This document shows, one piece after another, positions 22,346-62,739 of a stretch of 64,000 nucleotides of DNA. Within the stretch, counting starts at the first letter, position 1. Each line of letters opens with the position of its first letter. Source of the DNA: Microcaecilia unicolor. Taxonomy: Eukaryota. Below the pieces are notes generated by a model. It saw only the letters and a program-made list of their open reading frames with translations. It did not search any database and was not told the origin of the DNA. A program made the translations under genes and the position numbers. The DNA lies in NCBI RefSeq assembly GCF_901765095.1, contig NC_044037.1, positions 104,359,279 through 104,423,278 on the forward strand. Reading direction: 5' to 3'.

Positions 22346-22489
22346 CAGTATCTCCTTTCACTCTTCTCCCTCCCTCTTTTCGCACCCGCCCCCTTTTCCA
22401 GCACAGTACCTTAAAAGGTGGAGAACAAGTTTGTTTTTTACTTGACAGATTTTTAATTTATTTGAAAGATTCCCATATAATATTTATAA

Positions 22490-22960: not shown

Positions 22961-23486
22961 CCACCACCCCCCTCCCGCGTACTGCAACCCTCCCAAGAAG
23001 ACCCACCTTAATCCTTAAGGCCGCCCCGGTGGTGTAGTGGCCTCTGTGGCTGCAGGGGCAGGAAAAAATCCCACTCTTTCCTGCTCTCTGCCACTCCTCC
23101 GTCTCCGCTTTGCTCATCTGGGTTGTAGCGGCGCCGCCGGGTTTTCAAAATGGCTGCCAAGACTTTGGCAGCAGTCTTGCGAGTCTGTCGCCGGAAGCCT
23201 CAGCAGCCATTTTTAAATATACAGCGGAAGCGCTCACAGCACAGAAGAGCAAAAGGAGATGGAGGAGGCGGCAGAGGGCAGGAAAGAGTGGGATTCTTTC
23301 CTGCCCTCTCAGAGGCCACTACATCACCAGGGCGGCCTTCAAGGATCAAGTCACTGGGACAAGTACATAGGATCACTAAGAGAGTGAAAGGGAGAGTAGA
23401 TGGCATGGATGGGCATTTTTCTATGATTCTACGTTACAGAGTGAGGGTTGGTTGCTCCACTGTGATTAATATTAGGACACATTTAC

Positions 23487-30303: not shown

Positions 30304-30486
30304 TTTTTTTATTTTATTTTTTGTTACATTTGTACCCCGCGCTTTCCCACTCATGGCAGGCTCAATGCGGCTTACATGGGGCAATGGAGGGTTAAGTGAC
30401 TTGTCCAGAGTCACAAGGAGGTGCCTGTGCCTGAAGTGGGAATCGAACTCAGTTCCTCAGGACCAAAGTCCACCACCCTAACCCTA
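30304..30486 (-). mobile_element. SINE copy (same family, head slightly truncated)
   Basis: Roughly 90% identical to 13159-13354. Confidence 0.8.
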
Positions 30487-33738: not shown

Positions 33739-34292
33739 AACCTGGACAACTGCGACACAACGTAACCAAAGATCGTAACAGACATATCCTAACTCTTCCT
33801 TTCCCTCACTAAGTTCTCCCCAATTGTCTTTTACCATACATGTATCTCACTCTACCATAATATCACCTTGATATTACTCGCAATCTTGTATTTGTTCACA
33901 CTGGAATCGGTTAACACCGATTACAGTACTATGTAAGCCACATTGAGCCTGCAAAGAGGTGGGAAAATGTGGGATACAAATGCAACAAATAATAATAATA
34001 AATAATAATAAACAGAGCCCTATATGTTTTATGTGTTTCTGGTCTAATCATAGGAATGTGACTGATGACAGTACTGATCATTATCAGAATCATGGAACTT
34101 TTCTTATTGTCTTTTCTGTGCTCTGTAATTTTATTTACTGTTACTAACAACATAATATTTTATCACTTCATTTCTTTAAGAACTTTATATTTTCTTTAGT
34201 ACCACATGTACAAACTGCCATTCCACTAAAGTTTCCCGACTCAGTGCATGCAGGGAAGGAGCTCAGAAAGAAAGGCATTAAATGTGACTCAC

Positions 34293-34416: not shown

Positions 34417-35639
34417 CTGTGTGAAGAAAAAAAATCAGGTCTCGCTGCAATCAAACAAGAAACCGGGAACAGGGCCCACATCTGCTCTTTGCGTAAAACG
34501 GGGTGAATCAGCTAAAGTTAGGATAATGTGTAAGAGTGCAAACGCCCAGGAGCCAGTCTGCTTGTACAGATTTGAAACGGCACATCTTTTGCCAGGCACT
34601 CATTTCCTGCAACTTCTGCACTGAAAAATAAATATATATAACAAAACAATCTCACAAAAACTGTATTTAAAAAAAAAAATCCTCAGCTGGGCCTCCAATA
34701 GGTACAATTTACAAATCAAGGCAAAATGTCCCACAGCACATTTCACAGAAGTTTGCCTTTTCACAGTTTGGAGGTAATATTCAGCCTGCGGTGGATGGTG
34801 GATTTTAAGCCACAGGCTACCAAAGGCTAAACTCAGCCCAGATACTCAATACCAGGCCATGTACCAGTCAATATTCAGAACGGTGCAGTTAGCTTGGCAG
34901 ATAAAGTTAGGGCAACCTTTATGCTGTCCTAATATTATCTGCTTACTTAACTAGTTAGCGGTCTGAATATTGCCACTAGGCTGATTAAGTACTTGCTCCG
35001 CCTAAGCAGTGCCCATAGACCACCCTGGCACTACCTGGACAGAGCCGAGGTGATCAGAGCCAAGGAGTCTTGACTGAGAACAGGAGATGGCATGCCATCA
35101 AAAAGCTGAAGCCACTTAGTTTAGTCTGTTTCCCCTTCCCTGCGCAGCCGTCATTCTGTGTACACTCAAAAAAAAGCAAACAAACCTATAAGCTGCAGTA
35201 TCCATGTTGTCATTCTTTATTTTTGGTAGTATTTTTATTTAATCTCGCTTATATTTTCAAACATGCCGGCTTGTGCAGCATACAGATGTGCACAGAGGAA
35301 GTACTGATTTGTTGTAAATTGTAATCAAGAGTGTCATTTGAAGGTGCTGGTTATAGGGACATCCTAGCATGTGTTATATTTGTGCAGAGATTTTTTTCTC
35401 CTGGTAAAGGGCCACTAAAACATAATCAGGTGCTCAACATTCAGAGTTTCTACCTATTTATTTATGACATTTATATCCCACATCAAACATGAATTAGACT
35501 GAAACCTGGGAGCATTTAAAGTCTTATTTTTCTCCTGTGCCTAGATCAAAAGAGAAAGATGGTTTATGGGAACTTGCTGCTTTTGTTTTGTGAAATGCAG
35601 TGGTATTTTATAAAAAGACACTTAATATTGTTTATTACT

Positions 35640-37110
35640 ATTTCAAAGACAGAAATTGAATAATGAGGCACAGCTACCTTCATACGTTTTGGATGTTACT
35701 GAATTCTATTATTCTGTCACACTGTATTTCCAGTTTTGGCACAGTGTAAGTCATCACAAGGACAAAATGTAAGAAAACCAATGGACTGCATTAGGGGCTT
35801 ACAGCCCATTTAATTATGTTTAAACAAATGAGAGATCTGCATGAAAGAAAATATCTATTTTTATTATTTTGACTTATGAAACCACTCGTCTCTGAAACAT
35901 GCTCAAAACACAATAATCCGTTTGTACAAAAGAGATAAGGTGAAGATGTGATTCTATGTGCTCCAATGAAAGGAGAGTTTAATTTTACTTCCAATCGTTA
36001 TAACACCAGGATGCTCATTTTCGAAACAGATGGACGTCCAAAAAGTGACATAAATCGGCACTTAGACGTCCATCTCTCAGAGACGTCCAAATCAGTATAA
36101 TCGAAACCTGATTTTGGACGTCTTTATCAGAAGTCCGTCAAAATCTCAAGGGGGTGTATCAGAGGCGTGGTGAAGGCGGGACTTGGGCGTTCCTAAGACT
36201 TGGATGTCTTTGAGCCATAATGGAAAAACGCAGAGATGTCCAAGAGTTGGACATTTTTACCCTGACCTGTTTTTATTACGAATAAGGCACAAAAAGGTGC
36301 CCAAAATGACCACTGGAGGGAATCAGGGATAACCTCCCCTTACTCCCCCAGTGGTCATTAACCCCCTCCCACTCTTAAAAAACATCATTAAAAATATTAC
36401 TTGCCAGTCTCAGATGTCATACTCAGGTCCATGACAGCGCACACAGGTCCCTGGAGTAGTTTCGTAGTAGGTACAGTGCATGTCAGACAGTTGGACCCAG
36501 GCCCATCCCCCCTTACCTGTTACATTTGTGGAGGAAACAGCGAGCCCTCCAAACCCCACCAGAAACCCTCTGTACCCACACACAGGTGCCCCCCTTCACC
36601 CGTAAGGGCTATGATAGTGGTGTACAGTTGGAGGTAGTAGGTTTTGGGGGGCTCAGCACACAAGGTAAGGGAGCTGTGTACCTGGGAGCATTTTATGAAG
36701 TCCACTGCAGTGCCCCCCTGGGTGCCCGACTGCTGTCCTGGCATGTCAGGGGGACCAGTGTACTACAAATACTGGCTCCTCCCATGTACAAATGGCTTGA
36801 ATTTGGACGTTTTAGACTTGGACGTCTTTGGTTCCGAAAATCGCCGAAAATCAAAAATGTCCAAATCCAAGGACGTCCATGGTATTTTCAAAATGAAAGA
36901 TGGACGTCCATCTTTTTTCGAAAATGACCTTCTCCCCACTTCCGAATTTGGAGGCTTCCCAAAGTAGATTAAAACAACAGTTAAGATGAGCCCATCAGTA
37001 AACAGGATATCCTCACTGAAATTTGGCCATGTATTACTGTATTGTATAGAACAGTGTAGAAAAATGAGCACAAAAAAACAGCCTTTATTAGTGCTGTTTA
37101 CTTAAGAATA
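35640..37110 (-). repeat. Family X copy split by the nested DNA-transposon insertion (35640-36011 + 36967-37110)
   Basis: See 22490-22960. Continuity resumes exactly after the inserted element. Confidence 0.7.
36012..36966. mobile_element. Non-autonomous DNA transposon (~950 bp) with ~26-bp TIRs (ctcattttcgaaacagatggacgtcc / ggacgtccatcttttttcgaaaatgac) and many subterminal GGACGTC repeats, inserted inside another repeat
   Basis: The TIRs are visible. The host repeat (family X, 35640-37110) reads continuously across the insertion when compared with its paralog at 22490-22960. Confidence 0.7.
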
Positions 37111-38390: not shown

Positions 38391-38489
38391 AATAATTTTT
38401 GAATGTGTTTTAGTGATATTCAGTTTTGATTTCATGATATTTATATCTACATATAGAAATCTTTCAAATAAATTAAGAAGCTGTCAAAT

Positions 38490-38870
38490 AAGTTAAAAAC
38501 AGAAGATAAAAAACAACAAAGCAGTGGAATCAAATGCATTTATTTGGAATAATACCCGACGTGGCCACGTTTCGCCCTCAGGCTGCGTCAGGGGTACAAA
38601 CTATCAAAAGTGTGTATATCATATACACTAGTAGTGAGATGAGAACAGTTATTCCAAAAATCTAGTTCCACTTTTCTGCTACTTCCCACTAAACTGATAT
38701 AACTGGAATAACTGTTCTCATCTCACTACTAGTGTATATGATATACTTATACACACTTTTGATAGTTTGTACCCCTGACGCAGCCTGAGGGCGAAACGTG
38801 GCCACGTCAGGTATTATTCCAAATAAAGGCATTTGATTCCACTGCTTTGTTGTTTTTTATCTACTGTTTT
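38490..38870. mobile_element. Foldback element with ~150-bp near-perfect inverted arms
   Basis: ggaataatacccgacgtggccacgtttcgccctcaggctgcgtcaggggtacaaactatcaaaagtgtgtatatcatatacactagtagtgagatgagaacagttattcc pairs with its reverse complement 38700-38820. The outer arms also pair (cagtggaatcaaatgc.../...gcatttgattccactg). Confidence 0.75.
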
Positions 38871-39289
38871 GTAAGCAGTTGTGTGCCTTTTTGTTTTTTT
38901 GGTTAAATAAGTTAAAAATAAATCTTTTGTCCTCCACCTTTTAAGGCACTGCCTATCCAACTGGAGCAACTTTTGACTTTTTACAGATGAATCACGCATA
39001 AGCAGTCCACTATAATATTTTACTATTGCTTTCAATAGCATTTGCTATTGTTTTGGGTGAACCAGTGACTACGCCTATTGACAGCAAGATCCGCATACTG
39101 GCTTCAACCCATACAATGGGCTAGATAGCCTCATACCGTTTCCTGTTCTCAATCTAACCTCCTTGATCAGAGCTGATGTTCAGCAGCACTGCCAGGTGAA
39201 GTGCCACAGAATATCGGTGGACAGGTGGTCTGTGTCCCGTCACTTAAGAAAACCCCGGGGACAGGGAAAAAGATGCAAACAGGGACTAG

Positions 39290-39800
39290 AACAGTGGCGT
39301 AGCCAAGGGTGGGCTTGGGTGGGCCCGGGCCCACCCACTTTGGGCTCAGGCCCACCCAGTAGCAGCACACCTATGATGGGGCTGGCAGAGATTCTCAAGC
39401 CCCACCAGCCAAAAACTCCCAACTCCCTCCTGCATACAGTACCTTATAAATAGCAGATCTTCGCCTGCAGCAAGCAGCGACTGATACATACTATTCGCAC
39501 CGGTCCCACAGCCTTCCCTCTGATATATTCCTGCCTATGCGGAAACAGGAAGTTGCATCAGAGGGAAGACTGTGGGGCCGGTGCGAACAGTATGTATCAG
39601 TCGCTGCTCGCTGCAGGCGAAGATCTGCTATTTACAAGGTATTCAGAGGAGGGGGATGTTTTTAAAGATCATATGGCATGCAGGCGAGAGAGGGAGAGAC
39701 CAAATCACATGTGGGACAGGGCGAAGTTCTTCTGCCCACCCATCTTGGGCCCAGGCCCATCCAAAATTGGGTGTCTGGCTACGCCCCTGGACTGGAAAAC
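39290..39800. mobile_element. Palindromic/foldback element centred near 39540
   Basis: ctgatacatactattcgcaccggtcccacagccttccctctgat pairs with atcagagggaagactgtggggccggtgcgaacagtatgtatcag. The outer pair is ggcgtagccaagggtgggcttgggtgggcccgggcccaccc / gggcccaggcccatccaaaattgggtgtctggctacgcc. Confidence 0.65.
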
Positions 39801-42289: not shown

Positions 42290-42620
42290 AAAAAAGCACA
42301 AAGGGCTGTCAAGAGTGGTACGTGTGCTTTATTGATAACCTGACAAGGGCCATGTTTCAGAGTCAGAAACGCCTGCCTCAGGGGTCACCTCAGACAACCG
42401 ACACTGACTGCATAAGCTGTGGCTCAAATCAACATAATGAAAATCCACTCTAAAGACAAAGCATCAAAATCTTGGTGCAGAAAAACCCGCTGTGTAAGTG
42501 CGTCAAAAATTAGACCATTTTTGGTGCGCTTACATGGCGTTTTTTTCCGGACCAAATGGATCCCTCAGGCAGGCGTTTCTGACGCTGAAACCCAGCCCAT
42601 GTCAGGTTATCAATAAAGCA
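42290..42620. repeat. Inverted repeat pair (~60-bp arms: gtgctttattgataacctgacaagggccatgtttcagagtcagaaacgcctgcctcagggg and its complement) with a 170-bp spacer
   Basis: The arms are 42323-42385 and 42555-42615. A third partial copy is at 42840-42875. Confidence 0.6.
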
Positions 42621-45600
42621 CCACCATGCTGCTTCCCAAAGCCAGGGCCTGAGTCCAAACGTTTGGATACCTTGGTGCTTTGTAGCTTTTACTATATGAG
42701 ACGTGGGGACCCCTGACGCAGGTGCTAGTCACCGAAACACGGCCCGTGTCGGGTCTTCTTGTCAAGGCTCATTCGTTAAAGAACTGTGTTCCATTTTTAA
42801 AGGCTGTTTTTTTTTGTTTGTACTTCGTTCCCTCTCTTTTGTTATATCCAGGTTATCAATAAAGCACACTTGTACCACTCTTGAAAGCACTTTGTGCTTT
42901 TTTTGGACTTCTTGTGTTGTGTAATCTGACCCTCTCCGTTGTATGTTGCTATACCAATGAAAAGGTCATGAACAATAGGACCTGCCTCTGGTACTGTGGA
43001 CTCAGGCCCTGGCTTTGGGAAGTAGCATGGGATTTAGGGATCTTCCATGCTTACAAGGACAAATTTTAACAAAAAAGGTGTGCACAAAATAGGGATAGCA
43101 AAACAGGATTCAGTAATACAATAAAAAGGTAAGTCTGGTTGTTTAACTACAATCTATCTGTAGAACTATATTTACATAAGCTGCCAAGCCCAGTAAGAGT
43201 TCTGGGAGTGGCAGCCACATCCCTCATAAAGAGACATCCTTTTAGAGAGAGATTACCACCACAAATAGGTCTCTCTCATTGAGGCCACCAGGTCTTTGAA
43301 ACCCACAGCGCTGAGGTAATATAAGTTTACCATCCCCTGGTACCACACTCATGCCAAGGCCTCACAGAGAAAATCCTGTATAGCAGCAAGATAAAGCCTT
43401 CAGCTACAGAATAAACATCACAGTGAAAGGAAAGTTGGAAGAGGCAGGCGAGGTAGTGACGGAAAGAGCGAGAAATGGGGGAGAGGAGGTCAGAAGCAAG
43501 GGAAGTGGATAGGGACTGGGAGGATTAGAAATGAGGAGGCAGACTACAGAAAGAAAGACGTTGGGAGGGCGTGGGCAAAGCCCTTCCACCTACAGGATTT
43601 GAGAATTGCACCTTGCACTGTCAGTACAGAGCGATATCAGTCAGGGCTTCAATAATGCTTCCTCTGCAAGTCTTTCCAAATCTTTACCCCTATCCAACTA
43701 GAAGTACTGGGCATTTGCTGAAATATCAGAGTTATGAGCACATGCATGTTTACCTGCATTACGAACACTGTCAGATTTGCTCTAACCTCCTTAGGGTGCT
43801 GAAGGCCTAAGGAGATACCCTTATCCTCAGTCACGAGCCCGTTCTAATGATACACAGCCTTCACCACAATGCCCTCTAGAACTCAATTCTATCACTTACC
43901 TGTGTTATGAAAAACAGCCTTCAGGCCCAGGATGCATTTGGGCACATTGAGAGCAGTATGCTCTAGTTTCATACTGCTTTTACAGCTCCCCGACGGCGAT
44001 TTCTACGTTTATAAACACGCACACATTCTCTTTCCACTTTCTAGGCGTCTTCCTCTTTCCTTTCACTGCTCCCTGCCTTGCCTCTGCCTGGTTTCCGAGA
44101 CAGGTTCAGGAGAAGCTCTCTTGACTACAATCCCTATACCTAGGGAGGCGGTATTGGCCTGATAACCACCACAGGCCAGGATTACTCAGACCTAGCTCTG
44201 CTCTGCTGCGGATCTCTACCAAAAGGAAGGCAGAATCCTTTATCCTGACTATAGTAGTCCCTGCCATCCCTCAGTAAAGAAAAAAAATTGCATGAGCTGG
44301 TAACTCAGTACCTCTACATCAACACATATCATGTAACCGAATACTGCTTAATGAAAAGCAGAACAGAACATTGGAGTTTTAGCTGGAATGTCAAATGAAA
44401 TTATTGTTGCCTTTTTGTGATTTTTAGACTTAATTTTAGAGATTGTTTAGCCACGACCTCTGTTGTCAATCCAACAAAACTGGGGATACTGCCCTGGACC
44501 AACCATCATCTGCTAGGTTGGCAAACACCCACCTTTTCTTTCTGCTACCCCTACTCCAGCTGCAGGCATCCCAATGATACACATGAACAGTGTTTGTGCC
44601 TAGAATTTGTTCATATGCTGGTAGCTCGAGTGGGCTGACCGCTGGAAAAACAGGGCAGTGCCCGAGGGCTCACAACAGTAGGGGGCTGACTCTCCCCTAA
44701 TTGCCATCAAATTTAATCATTTTGATAGGTAGTTAGGGGCCTAAATCAAAGTCTGCCTCTGGTGAGTAGATTGGTGTATTTTATAGTCCATGTGCATACT
44801 TGCAAACTCTGCCCATGATCCACCATTCCTGTAAACGCCTACTGGAACAATAAACATAATCCTGTCATGGTTTGTATTTTATAAGAGGAGAAACAAGCAC
44901 AGGATATCTACACTACCAGACAAACAACACAGCAGAGATGACAAAAATAGCTGGAAATGTTTTAATAATATTCATATGACTTGACATGGCCATATTTCAG
45001 CTTAAATGGCCTGCATCAGGAGTCTGATTTTATCACCACAGGAATATAAAATTCAATGAGGCTTGAGTGTGCTGAGGCTTAGAAACCTGTCAATCCTGTA
45101 TTGCCCCTGACTATATGTTGCCCCTTGTTACTTTGCCTTCTGGCAATTCAGCCTTTGGTAGAAAAGACTACCTGTGTCTTCATTTTTCTACCTGTAAGAA
45201 AGTAGTTTATAAATCTATATGTTCAGCTACGGTTTCATACCAAGATACTAAATGTTGGAATTCCTTCCCGAAAAATATAAGATTGTTTTTAGGTAAGTTT
45301 TTTTAAATCTTTCCTTTTCAAAAAATTTCTGTCAATTGATCCTGGTGCCAAATCTCCCCCTTCCATTCTCCCCATTATGCTTTATTACTGAATTCTTTCT
45401 ATATTTACAATTCTTTCCTTACTAAGATGTGCGGGTTTGTTTTTTGTTTCATATAGCTTGTTAGCTACATTGAACTCAAAATGTATGGGAAAATGTGGGG
45501 TATGTATACATAAATGAATGAGCTGGGTTGGCAACAAGCTTTGCTTACCTGACTACAGCAGAGATTGTCCTTCAGAGGCAATAGGGCATCATTAGGCATG

Positions 45601-45989
45601 AACGAGGGTGGAGGGGGGAGTCAGAAAGTAGATGTAGTAGTAGTGGCTCAACTGCCAGGAGAAAGGTCAGCAATACTCAAGTCTGGCAGGCCTGAGTTAC
45701 CAAGTGCTTGTTCAGTGTCCCCAGTGGGCTTTCTGCTCTGCGATCTGTATTATCAGAAGAAAAAAAAAATGCAACAGGAACACATACGAACTAAAGGACA
45801 GAAAAGAGATGTTCAAGCAGCCACGATGGAGGACTACCGGCCACTCCGACCAGGAGCCCAGCTACAGTTACTGAAAGAGCGCTTCTGAGTCAGCAGAAAC
45901 ACTGATAGAAGGCGCAGCAAGCTAAGACATATTCATGCCATGCTCCGTGCTGCAAGAACATACTACAGCACTTCTTCCACTTTGCTTCC

Positions 45990-46150
45990 CCATCCGTTCC
46001 GCCCATGGGTGGAGAGAGCTGCACGCGAGGCGATTGGCTCCTCCATCCGTTCCGTCCGTGGGTGGAGAGAGCGGCACGCGATTGGCCAATCTCCTCCTCC
46101 TCGCTACTGGGCTGGGACCGGTCGGTCGTTGTGCTTTTGCTTTCATAGTA
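45990..46150. promoter_or_regulatory. CpG-rich block with a tandemly duplicated ~45-bp unit carrying CCAAT / inverted CCAAT (ATTGG) boxes. It is a candidate TATA-less promoter, possibly the MVP non-coding exon 1
   Basis: ccatccgttccgcccatgggtggagagagctgcacgcgaggcgATTGGctcc is followed by ccatccgttccgtccgtgggtggagagagcggcacgcgATTGGCCAATct. CpG is dense here in an otherwise CpG-poor window. The block lies ~4 kb upstream of the ATG exon, which is preceded by an acceptor. Confidence 0.4.
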
Positions 46151-47469
46151 GAACAAAAATCAGAAAAAGCGTCAAGGGCTGTCAAGCTGGGGATACTCAA
46201 GAGTGCTTTATTGATGACTCTTCAGTATTCCATGCTTGACGGCGCTTGATGCTCTTTCTGACTTTGTGTTGTGTGCTTCGACCCTTTCATTTGCCGCTTT
46301 CTTCCTACAACAATCAGCGTCTGTAAAACTGGCAAACTTTGGGAGGAATCTACCTCTCCAGGCCCACTTGGTGCTACGCTCTCGAGTCTTAAACTGACCT
46401 GATACCTCTCATCGTCTTGGGCTAAACACTACTAACAGTCCCAGTATTAGTTGTAAGGATAACGTCAGTTCCAAGCAGGCGGTGTCAGTGGACCTTCCGG
46501 TTCCTCCTGTTGCCTCTAGTTCCAGACCTGCAGCCACTGGTCCTTCTAAGATGCACAGCCATGTGGCCCAGCACCTTCTTTTTAAAGAAAAGTCAGCAAG
46601 TCCTTTCCCTTCTCCTTCCCACTGCCATACCAGCAGCAAAACACCACAGCTCACATGCAGGGCCGCAATCTCTTTACCATGGCTGTCAGTCCTGCCCCCT
46701 CTGACATCACCTTGCTGTTCTAGGGTTCTGGGGCAGAGCTGCCAACCCCATGTGTAAGTTGTGGTGTTTTGCTCCGCTGCTGCTGATCAGGAAAAGTAGC
46801 AGTATTGACATAGTAACATGGAGGGGCATAATCGAACGGATTGACATCACCTTGCTGTTCTAGGGTTCTTATCAATGGGGCGGAGCTAGGGTGGGGGTGG
46901 GGCTAGAATGGGGCCCCACCAAATTGGTCTGCATAGGGCCCCCACACTTGCTAAGACTGGCCCTGACTGGGCAGTGGCGGCGCCACTCATAGGCTGCCTG
47001 CAACCTGCACCAGGACTTCTTCCCTGAACAGTCCCACCCCTCAATCCCCCTGTACTGTGCAAATATAAAGAGATGCAAATTTCAAAAACTGACATATTTC
47101 AATCACTTTACTATAGGTTAACAAATACAAATAAAACAAAACATGGAAAATATAATATCATTTTAGTGGACTAAATACATTTTTCAATTAGCTTTCAAAG
47201 GCCAAAACCTCTTTCCTCAGGTCAGGACAGTATACTGCTGTTATGGTATTCTGTTCTGACACAAGAAAGGAGGGTTTGGTCTCCAAACATTAGTCAAAAA
47301 TGTATTAAAATTAGTCCAGCAAACATTACTTCCATTTTCTGTATTTATTAACACAGCTACCATACTACTTTATCCTAAACTAAAAATAAAATTCATTTTT
47401 TCCTACCTTTGTGGTCTGGCCGTTTACTGTTTTTAATCGTGTTGGTCCCAGTCTCTTGTTTCTTCTTTG

Positions 47470-48480
47470 CTCAATCTTCAACTTTCCCCCCTTTCCATCC
47501 AGCATCTACCCCCTCTCTCCCCCTTTTCCTTCCAGCATCTGCCCCCTCTCTCTCTCCTTTCCATCCAGCATCTGCCCCCTCTCTTCCCTCTTGCCATCCG
47601 GCGTCTATTTTCTCCATCCATGTGTAGTTTTTCTTCTCTTTTCCCTTTCCCTCATCTCTGTCAGTATGCGTCTCCTTCCTCTTTCTTCACTCCCCTCCAT
47701 CCATATGCAACTCCTTCCTCTTTCTTCCCTCTCCTCCATCCATGTCCATTTTTCCTCTCTCCGCCCCTCCATCCATGTTCATCTCACTTCCTCTCTTCCC
47801 TCTCCTCCATCCATGTCCAGCATTTTTCCTCTCTCCACTCCATCCATGTGCATCTCCTCCTGTCTTCCCTCCCCTCCATCCATTTCCAGCATTTCTCCTG
47901 CCCTCCCCTGCATCCATGTACAGCAACTCTCATCTCTCCCCTGCCCTCCCAGCCATCAATATTCAGCAACTCTCCTCTCTCCCCTATCCTCTCCTGCATC
48001 CATGTCCAGCAATTCTCCTCTCTCCCCTGCCCTCCCCTGCATCCATGTCCAGCAACTCTCCTCTCTCCCCTGCCCTCTCCTGCATCTATGTCCAGCAACT
48101 CTCTTCTCTCCCCTGCCCTCCCCTGTATCCATGTTCAGCAACTCTCCTCTCTCCCTTGACCTCCCCTGTATCCATGTTCAGCAAGTCTCCTCTCTCCCCT
48201 GACCTCCCCTGTATCCATGTTCAGCAAGTCTCCTCTCTCCCCTGCCCTCCCCTGTATCCATGTTCAGCAACTCTCCTCTCTCCCCTGTCCCCTGCCCTCC
48301 CCTGTATCCATGTTCAGCAACTCTCCTCTCTCCCCTGTCCCCTGCCCTCCCCAGTATCCATGTTCAGCAACTCTCCTCTCTCCCCTGTCCCCTGCCCCCC
48401 CTGTATCCATGTTCAGCAACTCTCCTCTCTCCCCTGCCCCCTGCTCAGCATCAATGTTCAGCGATTTCTTCCCTGCCCTA
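47470..48480 (+). repeat. Pyrimidine-rich satellite array with a ~43-50-bp unit (catccatgtccagcaactctcctctctcccctgccctcccctg)
   Basis: A tandem periodicity is visible, and the long ORFs at 47411-48504 are its artefacts. Confidence 0.8.
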
Positions 48481-48490
48481 CCTCTTAAAA

Positions 48491-48688
48491 CTAATTTTAC
48501 CTGACTGAACGAAAGCAGCAGAGTAAAGCCGGCTCCGTCTTCACCTTTCTTCTTCCCTCTCAGCTGTGGTCCCGCCCTCATTTCCTGTTTATGCAAGGGC
48601 AGGAGCACAGCTGAGAGGGAAAGAGAAAGGTGAAGACGGAGCCTGTACTCTACTTCTTTCACTGCCATTCAGTCATGTAAAATTAGTT
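48491..48688. repeat. Palindromic hairpin core of the same MITE family (~85-bp arms), abutting the satellite array
   Basis: ctaattttacctgactgaacgaaagcagcagagtaaagccggctccgtcttcacc... pairs with ...ggtgaagacggagcctgtactctacttctttcactgccattcagtcatgtaaaattag. Confidence 0.6.
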
Positions 48689-48915
48689 TTATGAGCGGCA
48701 GGAAAGCAAGGAGGGCAGGTTTGAAAATATTGGGGGTGCTCGAGCACCCACAGCACCCATGGAGTCGGCGTCTATGTCTGGGACCAAAGAAATATATTCA
48801 GTTAACCGGAGTGTGCACTTAACCGTTGTGACCCAAAGAAGCTTGACATCTGATAAACATATGTACTGTACTGATTATAAGTACAATATACAGTCTCTGT
48901 TAACTGACGTTAGGC

Positions 48916-49746
48916 TTACTTGAAGTAATCAGTCATAGTCCTCTGTACACTATTGTGTCTGTGAGTTCCATAGACTACGTCTGCCAGACGGTAAAAACTG
49001 TCATAGCACTGACATCCAGTGACCTCCAGATAGGCCCGCACGGTGTTAAGACTCTCCAGCACTCTTGCAAAAGTGACAGGAGGTTGTTGAATTTCGTCAG
49101 CATGTGCCTCACTGCTCATTTCATCATCTGTTTCATCATCAGCCGTTGCCTGCGTGTCGGCCCATATCTCGACATCAGTGCTGTCGTCAGCTGTTTGTAG
49201 ATCGTAATCAACAGCTACGTAGTGATGAAACTCCTCTTCAGTAACACCGGCTGGGATGTCAATAGCCTGTTCATCTGATGCATTTGCAACAGCTGCATCT
49301 GTTTCGTCCCTCTCTACATCCTTAACAAAGCTTGCCCGCTTGTAGCAGTTCACAATGGCTGCCTGTGTAACATGATTCCAGGCTTCTTTCTGCTTTTGTA
49401 GGGAATCCAACAGTGATAGATTACAAGCCAGTTCAACAGCACGTTTATCTTTGCCAGTCTGGTCATCCATAACGCTCATCAGACAACGTAGCACAAGAGC
49501 CCAATAATGTTTTTTGAAATTGGCTATTATGCCCTGATCCATAGGTTGGATCAGAGAGGTAGTGTTTGGTGGCAGGAAGACCACCTTGATGTTAGACAGC
49601 TTGATATCATCACTGTGTGCAGCACAATTATCACAAAGCAACAAAATCTGACGCTTTTGTGCCTGCATTCTAGTGTCTAACTTCTTTAGCCACTGCTTCC
49701 AAATTTCCCCAGTCATCCATGAATTTGCGTTAGCCTCGTATGACAC
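48916..49746 (-). pseudogene. Tigger/pogo DDE transposase catalytic domain (frameshifted relative to upstream pieces)
   Basis: Shows LLLCDNCAAHS...VVFLPPNTTSLIQPMDQGIIANFKKHY, as in the Tigger1/2 DDE region. Confidence 0.8.
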
Positions 49747-49752
49747 AGGAAG

Positions 49753-50097
49753 TCACTTAACATTCTTGAAGCAATGGGGCTGTTTGCTCTTTCTAATGAC
49801 GAGTGGTTCCAACTTCTCACTCCCATCCATATTGCAGCAAAGGAGGATCGTCAGTCGGTCCTTCGACGTTTTACTTCCTGTAGTTATGGCTTGTTTGAAT
49901 GCAAATGTTCCATCAGGAATCGCTAGCCAGTAGAGACCGTTTTCGTCAGCATTGAAAATGTCACGAGGTGCAAACTCGTTCAAGATGGTAGGAAGACCTG
50001 AAACAACCCAATTTTCAGCACCAAAGTCATCAGCGTCTTGTTTCTCACCATGCTGTTTCTTGAATTTTATGTTCTTCTTCTTCTTCCATCTTTCCAA
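49753..50097 (-). pseudogene. Tigger/pogo transposase middle segment
   Basis: Shows FNADENGLYWLAIPDGTFAFK...TILLCCNMDGSEKLEPLVI. Confidence 0.7.
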
Positions 50098-50231
50098 CCA
50101 TCCAACAGTGACTTTGAATTCAGTTAGTCCAAGACTTCAAGCTAGCTGATTAGCTTTCTCCATAAGCAGTGGACCACTGACAGGAAACTGTCTGCTCCTG
50201 ACTTGAGAAAACCACCGAAGAAGAGCATCTT

Positions 50232-50480
50232 CTATAACCTTAGCTTTTCCCGCCCGTTTACGTTTCCTGTGTGGATTTGTATTGTGTTGCCAGTCTTCAG
50301 AAGCTGATCTTTCTGCTTCAAGATACGTGAAATTTGACTGGGATTGACACCATATTCTTTAGCAATAGATGCTTGACTTTGTTTGTTTTCTAATTTTGTA
50401 AGAACTTCTATTTGTTCAGCCAGTGTTAAAGTCTTACAGTTGCGCAATGATGACGACCACTCCAGTGTACACTCTAACAA
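50232..50480 (-). pseudogene. Tigger/pogo N-terminal CENP-B-type HTH (psq) domain
   Basis: Shows KTLTLAEQIEVLTKLENKQSQASIAKEYGVNPSQISRILKQKDQLL. Confidence 0.7.
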
Positions 50481-50992
50481 CTTTCACTTATTCTGCCTGT
50501 GGCAGTTAACCAATGAGATTTCAAATTTATCGCCCCTTTATCACGTGCCAATCGGCTTCCATATTCCGTGCCTGCGCTTATGCGGAGTTTTTCCTGCAGA
50601 GGAGAGGTCTTAAACCATGCATATAAGCAAATCTTGCACTTATCAGTGGTGCGCTAAACCGAAGTTTGTCCCCATAGAAGCTGATGGCGCCAAAAACGGG
50701 ACCGAAGTATGGCATGCACTTAAATGGAGTGCACTGTACACGTTTGCAGGGCCCAAGTTATCTGCAAGACAAGTCGGTTTCACTTTCTCTGCTGCCAGAG
50801 GTGAGGATGAGGAAGTTAACTTGCACAGCCACTCCCTAGTTCCCTGCACCAAGAGGAGGAGAAATGAAAAGCAAGGAGGAGATTTAACTTAGCGGGGGGG
50901 GGGGGGGGGGGGAGCAGAGTCCTTTCCGGTAGGAAAGAAGGAAGGGTTTCATCTTGCTGTCACCTCTCCCACCTGTCTATTCTGTGCATTTC

Positions 50993-51472
50993 TGGCAGGG
51001 CCGTGCCGATGCGGTAAGCGGGGTAAGCACCGCAGGAGGGTGCCCACCTCTGGAGGGCACCGCCGCAGTGCTTACCCTCGCCCTGCGCCGCCGAGGCCTT
51101 TAAATCTTTTACTTGCAGTCGCAGCAGCGTCTGTGAAAACGGAGCGCTGCCGACGTCTCCCTTCCCTTGCACTCGTTGGTTCCCTCAGTGTCCCGCCTTC
51201 TTCTGACATCAGAAGAAGGCGGACACTGAGGGAACCAAGAGCGCGAAGGGAAGGGAGACGTCGGCAGCGCTCCGCTTTCACAGACGCTGCTGCGACTGCA
51301 AGTAAAAGATTTAAAGGCCCCCAGGGCGCGCAGCGATAATCTTCACGGGGGGGGAGAGGGGTGCGCGCGCGCCAACTGTTCTTCTGCGGGGGGGCGCCAA
51401 CTGTTCTTCTGCGGGGGGGGGGCGCCAACAGTTCGTCTGCGGGGGGGCGGCATAGACCCTTGGCACGGGCCT
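50993..51472. mobile_element. MITE of the same family (CAGGGCCGTGCC...GGCACGGGCCTG) with a near-perfect ~110-bp-arm internal palindrome centred near 51213
   Basis: Its 5' end is near-identical to 26482-26560. A perfect hairpin (ctttaaatcttttacttgcagtcgcagcagcg...ttctgacatcagaa...) sits inside. The 3' end is the inverted terminus. Confidence 0.65.
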
Positions 51473-52324
51473 GATTTCTCGGTTCCTCGGCTGGCATTCC
51501 CAGCACTGTGTTCTACCTTTTTTTCCTCTGGTCTCCTTTATTTATTTAAAAGATTTATAACCCACACAGCCTTGCCCAGTGGTTTCTCTATCCAGAAATA
51601 TTTGGGATGGCAAGCCCAAAAGACATTTCAGCACATCATGCCCACCACATCACACACCCTCCCCCTCCACCCCCCTTTTTTAAATTAGCAATATAAGATA
51701 TCCTGGTCTCTCCCTTTACCTAGATTCATCTACCAGGTTAAAAAAAAAACACCATCCTTTCACTGCCAGATCAGGTAATCAATCAGTTAGTTTTGTGTAT
51801 GATGACTATTTATGGTTCAACAATTTTTATTGATAACATATCAAATACAACCACATGACATAAGCATGATAAAGTGACAGCGGGTGATGCTCTTCCATGT
51901 ATAAATATTGAGATTTTAAGTCTGTCCCCATCTGCTTTATGACAAGGACAACTGACCATTTTAGTAGCCACCCTCTGGACCGACTTTATCCTGTTTATAT
52001 CTTTCTGAAGGAGCGGTCTCCAGAATTGTACGCAATATTCTAAATGAGATCTCACCAGAGTCTTATACAAATCATCACTTCCTTTTTCCCACTGATCATT
52101 CCTCTCCCTATGTACCCAAGCATCCTTCTAGCTTTTGCCTTTACCTTTTCTACCCGTTTGGCCACCTTAAGATCATCACATATGATCACAGTTAGTACTT
52201 AAGCTGAAACTGGCTAATTTGTGGGCAGTCTGGGAGTAGAGACTGCACTTATGTAGTTAAGTTCCAATGTTCAGTGCTTTAACTGCCTAAGGTAACCCCC
52301 TAAATAGGATGCACCTGATACACA

Positions 52325-52457
52325 TGTACCTTTATTCGACCACAATATCACCTTGTATTTGTTTCTCTACCGGACTAGGCGAAAGCCTTTACGGTATTAT
52401 GTAAGCCACATTGAGCCTGCAAATAGGTGGGAAAATGTGGGATCCAAATGCGACAAA

Positions 52458-52492
<35 letters not shown>

Positions 52493-52500
52493 ATATTGCA
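52325..52500 (+). repeat. 5'-truncated copy of the L2-like LINE 3' tail with an (ATAA)n tail
   Basis: Matches 33850-34015 (accacaatatcaccttgtatttgtt...gtaagccacattgagcctgcaaataggtgggaaaatgtggg). Confidence 0.8.
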
Positions 52501-53099
52501 CTTAACCACATAAGTGTTAATTGGCCACATATGTCCATATATTCAATGCTGGTGCACTAACATGGCCTGTCATCGATGGGCATAAAGTTGGCAGCAACCA
52601 GAAAAACGCTGACCGCTGCCAGCTGAATATCAGTGCTTCGGTGTATACCCAGAATATGGATAACTCCTTTACATAAACAATATCTTTGGTTGGGACCAGG
52701 GCCAGAACCAGAATCCTCTGGGAAGCCATGGGCAGCCTCACTCTCTCTGCATACTGTGCATTCTCTCAATAAGCTAGTTTGCTCCAAATGCTGTTCTGAA
52801 CTGTTTAATAAAATCAAGTCTCTTAAATCAAACAAATGCAACTACTGTACCTTAATGTATAGCACTTCAATATCTTCCAGGCTTGCAGGCAGCATCTAAG
52901 AAATTAAATAAAATTTTAAAATGTAAAACAGTTGCACATATAGGCAAGTGATAAATGGCAAACAACGTTTATTTACAATGTCTCTGAGGCTTAATACTTC
53001 TAACTAGAGAATGACACAGGGACACGGGACCTGCGGTAACCACAAGGATGGGGACGGGGACATAACCCCCCTTTACCTTGAATCTTAGACTACTATTAC

Positions 53100-53330
53100 T
53101 TATCAATTATGAGGCAAAGAGGGGCATTTTCAATATGATGTCTAAGTCCGACTTAGGACATTTTTCAAAAAACGTCCAAAATCCAAATAGGAAAGAAGGT
53201 CATTTTCAAAAGAGAAAAACCTCTTTCTTTTGTTTTCAAAAATACTGTTCTGAATAACATTTTGTGATTTGGACGTTTTGGTTTTTTTGGTTCATTTTCG
53301 AAAAAAAATAAAAAAGTCCAAGTGCAAAAC
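53100..53330. repeat. Fragment related to the same GGACGT-repeat element family
   Basis: Shows ggacgttttggtttttttggttcattttcgaaaaaaaa and ttaggacatttttcaaaaaacgtccaaaatccaaat. Confidence 0.45.
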
Positions 53331-53384
53331 ACACAAAATCAAGCCATTGGGATGTAGGAGGAGCCAGCATTTTTAGTAGACTGG

Positions 53385-53770
53385 CAGTGGTGTGCTGGAG
53401 CCGGCTCGCGGTTGTTACATTTTTAAAGCTCTTGTGAGCCAGTTGTTCTGGCAGGCGAGCCGGCTCCCAAGGGTGACGCAACCCGGCAGTAAGTGAGGTA
53501 AGCATGGCAGGAGGGCGCCACAAGCCATGCTTACACTCCTGCCACTCTGGGGGGTTTAAATCGTTGATTTACCTCCATTGCAGCAGCTGCAGTGGAAGCC
53601 CGTCTCTAGTCTTCCCTTCTTTCCCGTCAGTGTTCCGCCTTCTTCTGATGTCATTTCCTCTTTCCGCGAGGGCGGGACACTGACAGGAAACGATGGGAAG
53701 GCTAGAGATGGGCTTTCACTGCTGCTGCTGCGACGGAGGTAAATCAACGATTTAAACCCCCCAGGAGGCA
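53385..53770. mobile_element. Diverged copy of the same MITE family with an internal palindrome (53530-53760)
   Basis: Shares ...ggcagtaagtgaggtaagcatggcaggagggcgcc... and a hairpin gtttaaatcgttgatttacctccattgcagcagc.../...gctgctgctgcgacggaggtaaatcaacgatttaaac. Confidence 0.5.
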
Positions 53771-53789
53771 GGAGCAAAACGAGGGATGT

Positions 53790-54990
53790 TTGGGGAAGGG
53801 CGGGCAGGTGGACATTGGAGCGGGAGGGCAGGGGAGAGGAGCATCAAAGCCATCGATGGAGATGGATGGGAAGGCAGGGCCCAGGGAGAGAGGAGAAGTT
53901 GCTGGACATGGAGGGGAGGGGAGGGCAGGGGAGAGAGGACAGCTGCTGAATATGGATGGATGGAGGGGGAGGGGAGAGAGGAGAATCGCTGGGTATGGAT
54001 GGCTGGAGGGGAGCGAGGAGAATCGCTGGGTATGGGTGGCTGGAGGGGGGGCAGGGGATAGAAGAGAATCACTGGGTATGGGTAGCTGGAGGGGGAGGCA
54101 GGGGATAGAAGAGAATCGTTGGGTATAGGTGGCTGGAGGGGGGCAGGGGAGAGAGGAGAATTGCTGATATGGATGAATGGAGGGAGGGCAGGGGAGAGAA
54201 GAGTTACTGGACATGGGTGGAGGGGAGGGCAGGGGAGAGGAGAGTTGCTGGATATGGGTGGCTGGAGGGGGGACAGGGGAGAGAAGAGAATCGTTGGGTA
54301 TGGACGGCTGGAGGGGGGCAGGGGAGAGAAGAGAATCGCTGGGTATGGACGGCTGGAGGTGGGGCAGGAGAGAGAAGAGAATCGCTGGGTATGGACGGCT
54401 GGAGGGGGGCAGGGGAGAGAAGAGAATCGATGGGTATGGATGGATAGAGGGGGGCAGGAGAGAGAAGAGAATTGCTGATATGGATGGATGGAGGGAGGGC
54501 AGGGGAGAGGAGAGTTGCTGGATATGGGTGGCTGGAGGGGGGACAGGGGAGAGAAGAGAATCGTTGGGTATGGACGGCTGGAGGGGGGCAGGGGAGAGAA
54601 GAGAATCGCTGGGTATGGACGGCTGGAGGGGGGCAGGGGAGAGAAGAGAATCGATGGGTATGGATGGATAGAGGGGGGCAGGAGAGAGAAGAGAATTGCT
54701 GATATGGATGGATGGAGGGAGGGCAGGGGAGAGGAGAGTTGCTGGACATGGATGGATGGAGTGGAGGGCAGGGGAGAGGTGAGTTGCTGGACATGGGTGG
54801 ATGGAGGGGTGGGCAGGGGGGAGAGGAGGATTGCTGGACGAGTGAATGGAGTGGAGGGCAGGGGAGAGGAGGGTTGCTGGACATGGATGGAGGAGAGGGA
54901 AGGGAGTGAGAAGAAATGCTGGACATGGATGGAGGGGAGGGAAGAGTGAGGAAGGAGATGAGATGAGGGAAAAGGAAAAGAGGAGAAAAA
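53790..54990 (-). repeat. The same satellite in inverted orientation (purine-rich on the + strand)
   Basis: The unit gggtatggacggctggaggggggcaggggagagaagagaatcgct is the reverse complement of the 47470-48480 unit. Confidence 0.8.
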
Positions 54991-55489
54991 CTGCATATGG
55001 ATGAAGAAAATAGGCAGATTCACTGGACAGTCAAGTCTGCGGAGGACCCAGCTTTTATTTATGAATGTAGGGCAAGAAATGAAGAAGAAAAACGGAAAGT
55101 AAAGAAATAAATGGAAAGGAAGCCCTGGAAACTGAGTTAAGAGGACAGATAGCAGCAGAATCGGATACTGGGCCAGCATGATCAGAACAACAAAGTCACC
55201 AGACAACAAAGGTCACCAGACAAACATTATAGTGTTTGGAATATGTCCACTTTGAGAATCAGGTGCTCAACATTAAAAGTTTATATTTATTTACTTATTT
55301 ATGGCATTTTATCTCACATTAAACATGAATTAGATTGGAACCTGGGATCATTTAGTTTTTTTTTTCCTAGAGTAATGCATTGAACTCTCCCCCCAGGCTC
55401 TCTCTCCAGCTATAGCCAGCTCTGCAATTTGTGGGGGGGGGGGGGGCGCAGAGGTGGACCGGGGAGAGAGCATGTTGTTAAACATTTAC

Positions 55490-56340
55490 CAGCACACCAC
55501 TGTGTGGTCCCCCTGACATCCCAGGAAAGCAATAGGGCATCCTAGGGGGCACTGCGGTGGACTTCATAAAATGCTCCTAGGTACACATCTCACCATTTCT
55601 CTCTTACCTTGTGCACTGAGCCCCCCAAAACCCACCCAAAACCCAGTATCCCCAACTGTACACCACTACACCTGTATGGGGCACCTATAGGGGGCACCTA
55701 TATGTGGGTACAGTGGGTTTCTGGTGAGTTTGGGAGGGCTCACAGTTTTCTCCACAAGTATAACAGGTATGGGGAGGTAGGAGCCTGGGTCCACCTGTCT
55801 GCAGTGCACTGCACCCATCACTAGACTACTCCAGGGACCTGCATGCTGTTCTAATGGACCCGAGTATAACATTAGAGGCCGGCAAGTAATGTTTTTAATC
55901 ACATTTTCTGGGGGTGGGAGGGGGTTAGTGACCACTGGGGGAATAAGGGGAGGTCATTCCTGATTCCCTCCAGTGGTCATCTGGTTATTTAGGGCAACAT
56001 TTTGTGCCTTATTCATAATAAAAACAGGTCTAGCTCAAAACGTCTAAGTTTTAGTCCTGGATGGTTTTGTTTTGTTCCATTATGTCTGAAAAACGTCTAA
56101 GTCTTAGGAACGCCCTGAACATGCCCTGGCACTTCCCCTTGAGATTTGGATGCACTTCTGGCGGACTTCAGAGAAAAACATCTAAAAATAGGTTTTGAAA
56201 ATGCTGATTTGGACGTTTTTGTGAGAAAAACATCCAAATGCAGACTTACACCACTTTTTGGATGTTTTTCTCTTTTGAAAATGAGCCTGTTATTTGTGAA
56301 AATCCTTGCGATAGAATGGCCAGGATAATACCAGTATTGA
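55490..56340. repeat. Diverged, inverted copy of the 36012-36966 element family
   Basis: Long stretches are the reverse complement of 36060-36900 (for example ccactgggggaataaggggaggt..., gtacacctccatacaggtgtagtgg...), and GGACGT subterminal repeats are present. Confidence 0.65.
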
Positions 56341-59564: not shown

Positions 59565-59744
59565 TTTTTTTTGTTGTTGTTGTTGTACCCCACGCTTTCC
59601 CACTCATGGCAGGCTCAATGTGGCTTACATGGGGCAATGGAGGATTAAGTGACTTGCCCAAAGTCACAAGGAGCTGCCTGTGCTGGGAATTGAACTCAGT
59701 TCCTCAGGACCAAAGTCCACCACCCTAACCACTAGGCCACTCAG
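59565..59744 (-). mobile_element. SINE copy (same family) with a (GTT)n-interrupted poly-A
   Basis: Roughly 90% identical to 13159-13354. Confidence 0.8.
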
Positions 59745-62430: not shown

Positions 62431-62432
62431 GT

Positions 62433-62575
62433 TATTTATTTATTTATTGCATTTGTACCCCACATTTTCCCACCTATTTGCATGCTCAATGTGGCTTACA
62501 TAGTACCTTCAAAGGCGTTTGCCCAGTCGGTGGATAACAAATACAAAGTTGTATAGTGATCGTATGAGGTATAAG
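62433..62575 (-). repeat. Antisense copy of the L2-like LINE 3' tail
   Basis: Reverse complement of the tail module; the match extends into the pre-tail region (...aacaaatacaaagttgtat). Confidence 0.75.
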
Positions 62576-62739
62576 TGGAGGGTCAGACTGGATGAAGATT
62601 GTGTGATGTCCTGTTTGATCATAGTCATGCTGTGTTGGTAGGTGAAGAGGGTTACGTGGGGTCGTTGGGGTAGGCCTTTTTGAAGAGGTAGGTTTTCAGT
62701 GATTTCCTGAAGTTCAAGTTATCTTCAGTTAAGTTCTTT

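Follow-up and report, generated by a model that had tools for sequence, protein, structure and literature searches.

Mirrored satellite arrays in the caecilian Microcaecilia unicolor are probably two old copies of one composite, hAT-related DNA transposon

Foldback elements are recognized by their long inverted termini, which consist of tandem repeats. Tetris of D. virilis is described as an element of this type (PMC4079207, cited in PMC12628747). In the summary given by PMC12628747, miDNA4 of Xenopus is a Tc1/mariner MITE that contains a satellite in its interior (Scalvenzi and Pollet). The copy number of this tandem repeat varies, from a single monomer to arrays of different lengths, and it has been proposed that copies with long arrays shed their termini and turn into free satellite arrays. 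The same source describes Xmix/Xstir of Xenopus, in which MITEs, tandem arrays and composites of the two occur side by side (Hikosaka and Kawahara 2004), and states that stem-loop formation has been invoked for the origin of the arrays. The clam Donax trunculus carries DTC84, a tandem-repeat-containing MITE (PMC3879986). Transposon-borne arrays are already known from amphibian MITEs, and the pair described here is a further example.

A 64-kb window of the caecilian Microcaecilia unicolor was analysed, and all local searches were made within it. The region is a transposon nest: it contains 13 long inverted repeats as well as LINE fragments, a Tigger and a repeat called X (Table 1). A sequence-only reading had proposed that two inverted satellite arrays, each capped by a hairpin MITE, bracket a Tigger-like transposon, and its boundaries proved right to within about 10–30 bp. 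We consider it likely that the mirrored arrays belong to one composite, non-autonomous DNA transposon of the cut-and-paste type, which is related to hAT-like hairpin elements and is present here in two old and diverged copies of opposite orientation. Arrays and hairpins are most simply read in this way, which makes the finding an ordinary one. The plan of the family consists of a TIR, a short leader that contains a small hairpin, a palindrome of ~200–260 bp, a slot for tandem repeats, a tail and a second TIR; in the array-bearing sub-family the slot is filled by a polypyrimidine/polypurine repeat of 33–50 bp, grown to ~1–1.2 kb. The two copies are referred to as the left unit (L) and the right unit (R).

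Table 1. Positions of the repeat and transposon features in the 64-kb window.
Feature	Position	Strand	Remarks
Element Z, lone 3′-end fragment of E/M-type family	22264–22340	−	Ends in C27 tract
Element E, hairpin-family member	26498–28835	+	TIR CAGGGCCGTGCC; perfect 8-bp target duplication CCTCCAAT
L tail	47405–47484	−	Homologous to R tail 55143–55215 (70% identity, z = 6.6)
L 33-bp tandem block, 3.7 copies	47485–47607	−	L-specific; TRF, unit list
L single-copy founder unit	47606–47698	−	Outer array edge
L main array, C-rich on + strand	47699–48484	−	Units of 33–39 bp, then 43 bp, then 49–50 bp
L long palindrome	48482–48695	−	Abuts inner array end; inverted repeats I3, I4
L expected-leader position	48696–48776	−	
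Tigger-end-like fragment	48777–48835	+	Direct orientation with Tigger right end
Degenerate pogo/Tigger transposon, broken ORFs	48866–50740	−	Both ends approximate; Pfam domains
Element M, hairpin MITE, hAT-like	50996–51473	+	478 bp
Repeat X, left part	53120–53384	.	53175–53384 aligns with 36952–36755
R, complete TIR-bounded element	53385–55502	+	2,118 bp
R TIR, first	53385–53398		Exact 14-bp CAGTGGTGTGCTGG
R small hairpin	53397–53467		Fold
R leader	53468–53546		Homology to M and E
R palindrome	53547–53764		Fold; homology to M
R array	about 53790–55013		Founder unit at outer edge; TRF, unit list
R tail	55014–55236		
R stretch recurring at 35402–35532	55237–55368		
R 3′ end			With G tract, before last TIR
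R TIR, second	55489–55502		Exact CAGTGGTGTGCTGG, inverted
Repeat X, right part	55503–56290	.	55505–56286 aligns with 36757–36013 (74%, E = 5e-150)

The C-rich array at 47485–48484 and the G-rich array at 53822–55013 are inverted copies of one 33–50 bp satellite. Blastn aligned 47605–48484 with 55013–54095 on opposite strands (72% identity, 958 columns, E = 4e-122), and the monomer motif ATCCATGTYCAGCAAYTCTCCTCTC had 22 matches in the window (three mismatches or fewer; shuffles, 0), all 13 plus-strand matches falling within the left array and all nine minus-strand matches within the right. The arrays proposed from sequence are confirmed by these results, and their units, which share ATCCATGTYCAGCAAYTCTCCTCTC on opposite strands, are related. 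GC skew is −0.57 in the left array and +0.76 in the right, and the plus strand is ~80% pyrimidine and ~79% purine, respectively. TRF reported 47485–48439 with a period of 33–43 bp and 53857–54941 with periods of 45, 90, 224 and 270 bp. The ~45-bp satellite suggested earlier is real, but its unit length is not uniform (33, 33–39, 43 and 49–50 bp on the left, 37–49 bp on the right). Unlike classical satellites, which form homogeneous, transposon-independent arrays of tens of kilobases, these arrays measure 1.0 and 1.2 kb and are confined in the window to the two units. Canonical G-quadruplex motifs are few (two and three in the two arrays), and a claim of G-quadruplex potential was dropped. A homology search with a 485-aa ORF spanning the array gave no match, exact ORFs across array, Tigger and LINE had no matching protein on record, and Rfam identified no known RNA family over 44–58 kb.

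The nearest relative of a monomer lies in its own array in 39 of 40 cases. The right array contains 100%-identical monomers spaced 224 or 270 bp apart, forming identical repeated blocks, and the 50-bp variants of the left array are 98% identical. The placement of nearest relatives, together with the identical blocks of the right array, points to turnover and expansion of the arrays in place. Each array has one founder segment at its outer edge (78% identity between L and R, z = 15.7), and the founder motif GTTTTTCTYCTCTTTTCCYTTTCCCTCATCTC occurs in the window only at 47627–47658 (+) and 54960–54991 (−), with 0 expected. The stretch of R that corresponds to the 33-bp block of L is non-repetitive.

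Three hairpins fold far beyond shuffled sequences: the left palindrome (−77 kcal/mol, z = −16.5), 53385–53790 in R, which includes the large R palindrome (−144 kcal/mol, z = −16.9), and element M (−213 kcal/mol, z = −24). The L and R palindromes are homologous yet distant (60–63% identity, z = 10–14), the L palindrome is homologous to that of M in the same range of z, and the R and M palindromes match with z = 21, an exact 20-bp core included. A hairpin at the inner end of each array had been read correctly, and it does adjoin the array; it is, however, the internal palindrome of the array-bearing family, with the array slot just 3′ of it, and not a separate MITE that caps the array. In R this palindrome (~200 bp) lies on the 5′ side of the array, away from the element ends. 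Alternatively, a hairpin MITE family might prefer the ends of existing satellite arrays, so that two separate entities met repeatedly, and hairpin elements without this satellite (M, E and Z) do lie nearby. Nevertheless, both array–palindrome junctions fall at the same position in similar sequence, the polarity of the array relative to the palindrome is the same, the same founder unit occupies the far end, and array and palindrome of R lie within one TIR-bounded insertion, all of which renders such repeated encounters very improbable.

R is a discrete 2.1-kb insertion, because 14-bp TIRs bound it and because it splits the older repeat X, which is contiguous in a paralogue (36013–36952, unbroken across the insertion point). 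The TIRs, CAGTGGTGTGCTGG at 53385 (+) and 55502 (−), form a 14/14 inverted match and are the sole exact occurrences in the window. The X alignment junctions at R overlap by TGG. The target duplication is not clean: beyond the right TIR stand five additional bases, TGTGG, and just TGG is a repeat of the left flank; no clean 8-bp target duplication for R was found under any boundary choice tried.

These observations bear on two accounts that treat the mirror as a single structure. An inverted segmental duplication, raised earlier as an alternative, would mean that a repair or fold-back event produced an inverted copy of one block and that insertions later filled the centre, and it would agree with tail, founder, array and palindrome being mirrored on both sides. 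It is nevertheless disfavoured, and we judge it very unlikely: searches outside 47405 and 55215 and on the inner side of the palindromes gave no significant inverted homology, so that homology stops with the units; R sits with its own TIRs inside one older repeat that forms both its flanks, half within the quasi-palindrome and half outside; and, at 60–78% identity, the copies have diverged as far as dispersed repeats do. The second account takes the two arrays as the long tandem-repeat TIRs of a single ~8-kb foldback element or macrotransposon, comparable to Drosophila FB and Tetris, whose tandem-repeat-built inverted termini the arrays resemble. The right array, however, lies in a TIR-bounded insertion of its own, and R alone splits repeat X, with one half of X within the supposed element and the second beyond it. 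Moreover, L and R have no common terminal sequence at their outer ends past the tail and arm identity is just ~72%, and we regard a single foldback element as extremely unlikely.

Members of the hAT superfamily produce 8-bp target duplications and have short TIRs starting with YARNG. Nearby relatives of R bear hAT-type 8-bp target duplications, perfect on both sides of element E and 7/8 at M, whose flanks are ATTTCTGG and ATTTCTCG; R has just TGG or TGTGG. TIRs of the YARNG type are present in E and M (CAGGGCCGTGCC, paired in M with CAGGCCCGTGCC) and in R, and L is without any. Just 3′ of its palindrome (51078–51336), M carries tandem repeats of 25–28 bp (51362–51451), which occupy the same slot as the arrays of R and L. 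The leader of R is similar to those of M (z = 6.1) and E (z = 8.6). MITEs are small (under about 800 bp), lack coding capacity and reach high copy numbers. M falls within this size bound, and R and E lie above it, E having 2,338 bp including a CR1-like LINE 3′ fragment nested at 26822–27734. Z matches the 3′ end of E in reverse complement (85% identity, z = 17); this terminus match is real, and Z was rejected as a link between the C-rich tail of L/R and the E/M-type terminus, the tail likeness being non-significant (z = 1.8 and 0.2). A G21 tract at 50894–50914 was likewise rejected as a further 3′ end of the family (z = 1.7, non-significant).

The TIR of R (CAGTGG...) is unlike that of E and M (CAGGGCC...), and homology of R to M and E begins 83–88 bp inside R, so that the 14-bp TIRs could belong to a host MITE. 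An array-bearing element with its hairpin, starting at ~53468, would then be nested inside a small unrelated MITE that owns the CAGTGGTGTGCTGG TIRs, and the empty-site evidence would date this host but need not date the element that bears the array. Leader homology to M and E does start at ~53468–53473, where those elements have their own TIR, the 88-bp 5′ extension folds into a hairpin of its own, and a GTTGTTA(A)CATTT motif lies near both ends in direct orientation. By contrast, the putative inner element is without a flanking 8-bp duplication, the 3′ end of R is weakly like those of E and M (z ~3), and the window contains no second copy of the putative host; we consider nesting unlikely.

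L and R have a common internal anatomy, with tail, founder unit, array and palindrome in the same order. L is without recognisable TIRs, target duplication or empty site, and searches of 44000–47404 and 48696–50995 with the putative inner-end sequence, the E/M TIR and the 5′ and 3′ parts of R returned nothing significant. L is probably truncated at the expected leader, where the sequence has no demonstrable homology to the leaders of R, M and E (z ~0). For the same reason, and because the stretch resembles a Tigger end, CATAGACGCCGACTCC at 48761–48776 was dropped as a candidate TIR of L. The proposal of a mobile unit inserted twice is directly supported for R by its TIRs and the split repeat; for L, it is solely the homology of ordered parts to R that suggests an insertion.

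The 4.7-kb centre is made up of unrelated insertions, among them the degenerate Tigger and M, which agrees with the Tigger-like centre and additional hairpin MITE recognized earlier. Three broken minus-strand ORFs (48916–50480) contain the Pfam domains DDE_1 (3e-29, 4e-9) and CENP-B_N (9e-14). Terminal similarity of the Tigger is weak (z = 3.6). The Tigger-end-like fragment matches 50690–50755 (z = 7.4; 0/300 shuffles equally good), and 48721–48835 resembles the right end of the Tigger in direct orientation (z = 7.2). The bracketing of the Tigger looks incidental. The pair had also been considered prone to cruciform formation and recombination; it is an implausible substrate because identity is ~72% (77% in the best 100-bp window between the inverted arms), exact inverted matches do not exceed 28 bp and a 4.7-kb spacer separates the arms. 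L and R are unlikely to form a cruciform or to recombine with each other, and only the individual ~200-bp palindromes are hairpin-prone.

If the mirrored arrays are two transposon copies, both would have been mobilised in trans by a transposase recognising their termini, and L and R would have arrived by separate insertions. L may afterwards have lost both ends, and each array may have gone on growing and homogenising in situ via replication slippage or unequal exchange. The mirror around the Tigger would then be a by-product of two close insertions in a transposon-dense region, and not a functional or single-event structure.

Two ordinary transposon insertions would account for the ~8-kb quasi-palindrome, without a structural rearrangement, a fragile site or an artefact of assembly having to be invoked, and the main use of the result lies in annotation. 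It adds a caecilian, hAT-related case to the known pattern in which tandem arrays are born and expanded within non-autonomous DNA transposons, and the pair of an intact copy (R) and an end-less copy (L) corresponds to the route by which transposon cargo has been proposed to become a free satellite. As a speculation that we think rather improbable, a long palindrome that directly adjoins a strongly strand-asymmetric polypurine/polypyrimidine repeat might act as a self-expanding "satellite seed", in which replication forks stalled by the hairpin cause the array to grow and a hAT-like transposon carries the module to new sites in caecilian genomes, end-less copies like L being the first step to free arrays. 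If true, it would offer a vertebrate system for following the transposon-to-satellite transition copy by copy.

Compared with hAT non-autonomous elements, CAGGG termini accompany 8-bp duplications in E and M, and R begins with CAGTG and has leader and palindrome in common with both, but R is without a clean 8-bp duplication. In foldback elements (Drosophila FB and, as cited in PMC12628747, Tetris), inverted arrays of short tandem repeats also surround a central region; there, however, both arrays form the termini of one element, whereas here the two arrays belong to separate elements, of which the right one inserted independently. DTC84 is similarly a composite non-autonomous element with central tandem repeats between conserved flanking modules, but it is from a mollusc, has Helentron/pearl-type modules and few monomers, and is without hAT-type termini or a long palindrome (PMC3879986). 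Helitrons and Helentrons themselves are without TIRs and have a short 3′ hairpin by a CTRR end, whereas the TIRs of R are perfect. Xmix/Xstir, as summarized in PMC12628747, is comparable in its composite MITE-plus-array forms and in the stem-loop formation invoked for it; the Xstir arrays, however, derive from the MITE's own internal sequence, whereas the array of L and R lies beside the palindrome and is not built from it. Similar to L and R, miDNA4 is an amphibian non-autonomous DNA transposon with an internal tandem repeat, and the loss of termini proposed for it fits L, which has no TIRs. It differs in belonging to Tc1/mariner, whereas the relatives here are hAT-like, and in being without a long internal palindrome by the array; its sequence is apparently unrelated to L and R.

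We consider the mirror arrangement of satellite arrays and hairpins best explained by two diverged, opposite-orientation copies, the left unit L and the right unit R, of one kind of non-autonomous DNA transposon related to hAT-like hairpin elements, each composed of a satellite array, a palindrome and a tail. Arrays, hairpins and the central Tigger, as described in the sequence-only reading, were all found by TRF, blastn, folding and Pfam. The two arrays are inverted relatives (47605-48484 versus 55013-54095 on opposite strands, 72% identity, E = 4e-122 by blastn), and a degenerate monomer motif is restricted to them in the window (13 plus-strand sites on the left and nine minus-strand sites on the right, none expected). 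Long palindromes adjoin the inner side of both arrays and a third lies within the 478-bp element M; all three form much more stable folds than shuffles (z -16.5 to -24). The pyrimidine or purine content of one strand of the arrays is ~80%, canonical G-quadruplex motifs are few, and Rfam returned no match in 44-58 kb. Between L and R, the degenerate Tigger transposon is identifiable by Pfam domains DDE_1 and CENP-B_N in three broken minus-strand ORFs.

Coordinates of the features within the window
Feature	Positions	Details
Tail, L / R	47405-47478 / 55215-55143	70% identity, z 6.6
Array, L	47485-48439	33-43 bp period (TRF)
Array, R	53857-54941	45/90/224/270 bp periods (TRF)
Founder 32-bp core, L / R	47627-47658 (+) / 54960-54991 (-)	no other site; 0 expected in window
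Palindrome, L / R	48482-48695 / 53547-53764	60-63% identity, z 10-14
X, halves flanking R	53120-53384 and 55503-56290	ends like GGGGCATTTTCAA... and ...TTGAAAATGAGCC
X, paralogue	36013-36952	
Repeat hosting the 36-kb X copy	22438-22954	unbroken at 22545-22954
M	50996-51473	TIR CAGGGCCGTGCC; flanks ATTTCTGG / ATTTCTCG
E	26498-28835	same TIR as M; perfect 8-bp duplication CCTCCAAT
Z	22264-22340	further 3'-end fragment of the hairpin family
Tigger ORFs	48916-50480	minus strand
Tigger right end	50690-50755	
Tigger-end-like fragment (~60 bp)	48777-48835	direct orientation, not inverted
G/C tracts	22315-22341; 55433-55446; 50894-50914	C27 (Z); G14 (R); G21
G-rich repeats of M	51362-51451	25-28 bp units
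CR1-like LINE	7552-10742	ORFs 7552-8634 (360 aa), 8813-10570 (585 aa, reverse transcriptase)
LINE fragment nested in E	26822-27734	99% identical to LINE 3' end, 9829-10742
Inverted repeats of GC-rich segment	16514-16641 / 21935-22062	97% identical
ORFs of GC-rich segment	17505-19868 (-); 19929-21596 (-)	
Other MITE-like inverted repeats	38465-38901; 39421-39660; 14578-14758; 42324-42621; 23017-23339; 5401-5689; 12051-12205; 6588-6813	arms 37-154 nt
(AAAT)n repeat	52319-52495; 6515-6813; 33885-34012; 62432-62577; 13159-13224; 30304-30377; 59565-59630	79-90% identity

The sequence CAGTGGTGTGCTGG has only two exact occurrences in the window, one from 53385 (+) and one ending at 55502 (-), which form perfect 14-bp terminal inverted repeats (TIRs) around a 2,118-bp block with hairpin, array and tail. 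An older ~1-kb repeat, X, is split by this block, R, into two flanking halves; the paralogue of X at 36 kb is unbroken at the corresponding point, with flank positions 53384 and 55505 matching the neighbouring positions 36755 and 36757. The paralogous copy can serve as empty-site evidence, and R is, judged from its sequence context, an insertion. Its target duplication is imperfect: after the right TIR come five additional bases, TGTGG, of which TGG alone matches the left flank. The 36-kb copy of X lies itself inside another repeat and X hosts R, which gives three levels of nesting. An inverted segmental duplication, the other origin suggested in the sequence-only reading, is rejected because inverted homology is absent outside the two units and R sits in a single older repeat, and a single foldback-type element is rejected because one half of X lies within the quasi-palindrome and the other outside it.

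From ~53468 to the end of its palindrome, R aligns with the hairpin-family elements M and E. The leaders, which precede the palindromes, are similar between R and M (z 6.1), R and E (z 8.6) and M and E (z 15.7), and the palindromes of R and M match with z 21, including an exact 20-bp core. CAGGG termini together with 8-bp duplications are characteristic of hAT transposons; E and M are accordingly non-autonomous elements of hAT-like type, to which R is related. TRF detected three copies of a 25-28 bp tandem repeat directly 3' of the palindrome in M, which occupy the slot filled in R by the big array. Since the TIR of R is unlike that of E and M and its 3' end resembles theirs weakly (z ~3), R may belong to a sister family with different ends; the same observations would fit an array-bearing, E/M-like element lying within a small MITE unrelated to it, which we regard as improbable. 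Long homopolymer G/C tracts occur near the 3' ends of Z and R, and the G-rich repeats of M lie near its 3' end; membership of the G21 tract in a hairpin-family element is not demonstrable.

From the outside inwards on the C-rich strand, the parts follow one order in both L and R: the tail, the single-copy founder unit at the outer array edge (78% identity, z 15.7), short units, 43-50 bp units and the palindrome. L has no recognisable TIR, its putative leader is unrelated to the other leaders (z ~0), its side from 48721 resembles a Tigger end, and its missing termini were not found in the surrounding sequence. The best reading of L is an older copy of this type of element that has been truncated at both ends. 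The proposal that satellite plus hairpin forms a mobile unit is directly supported for R by its perfect TIRs and split X; for L the support comes from the ordered homology to R. Hairpin MITEs targeting satellite ends are rejected as an alternative, because the units agree in polarity, junctions and far-end founder unit, and R has both parts within one TIR pair. An assembly collapse or inversion is unlikely because false inverted duplications would be near-identical, whereas these copies differ by 22-40%. The Tigger-end-like fragment just left of Tigger adjoins L and could be left over from a further Tigger-family element or from a rearrangement.

The nearest relative lies in the same array for 39 of the 40 monomers, and between-array monomer identity averages 0.705. 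In R, 100%-identical monomers spaced by 224/270 bp indicate duplication of a higher-order block; L has a 33-bp block of its own, along with 50-bp variants that are 98% identical. As read from the monomers, the shared outer-edge order shows common ancestry of the arrays, and the array-specific variants show separate further expansion and homogenisation of each. Most simply, this growth would have been local, through slippage or unequal exchange.

For two nearby polar units, the prior for hairpins facing inwards is one in four, and by rough geometry the probability that two points placed at random in 64 kb are <6 kb apart is ~0.18. In the window, the wider hairpin family is represented by five or more members or fragments. 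The arrangement calls for no special explanation. Local reinsertion is typical of hAT elements and could contribute to the proximity of L and R, but their deep divergence speaks against direct descent of one from the other. Of the cruciform and recombination proneness suggested earlier, only the hairpin-forming tendency of the individual palindromes stands; on general grounds, L and R are unlikely to extrude a large-scale cruciform or to recombine homologously with each other, because their longest exact inverted match is 28 bp, the best 100-bp window reaches 77% identity and the spacer is 4.7 kb.

The window is transposon-dense vertebrate DNA with several LINE fragments, many nested repeats and 13 long inverted repeats separated by <400 bp. 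Many other long, palindromic MITE-like inverted repeats are present, unrelated to the hairpin family by BLAST; this region is very rich in hairpin-forming elements. A short repeat with an (AAAT)n end, interspersed in about seven copies or fragments, looks like a SINE or LINE tail. Both ORFs of the CR1-like LINE are long and open, and the 99% identity of its reverse transcriptase, over 57% of the query, to an NCBI Microcaecilia unicolor protein suggests that the family was recently active. Inverted repeats also flank a GC-rich 5.4-kb segment, in which a 555-aa ORF contains a LAP2alpha domain (Pfam 4.5e-15) and a 787-aa ORF has no Pfam match. The LAP2alpha domain is related to DIRS-type gag, and the segment is a possible DIRS-like retroelement bounded by inverted terminal repeats.

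It is well documented that non-autonomous DNA transposons can carry tandem arrays and that these expand within them (PMC12628747; PMC3879986), and L and R add a further case of this pattern. Examples include Xmix/Xstir and miDNA4 in Xenopus among amphibians (review PMC12628747), DTC84 in a clam (PMC3879986) and the foldback element Tetris in Drosophila virilis (PMC12628747). L, with no recognisable termini, fits the fate proposed for long-array copies that lose their termini (PMC12628747). Compared with Xmix/Xstir, miDNA4, DTC84 and Tetris, L and R differ in their caecilian host, their hAT-like relatives and the long palindrome directly beside the array.
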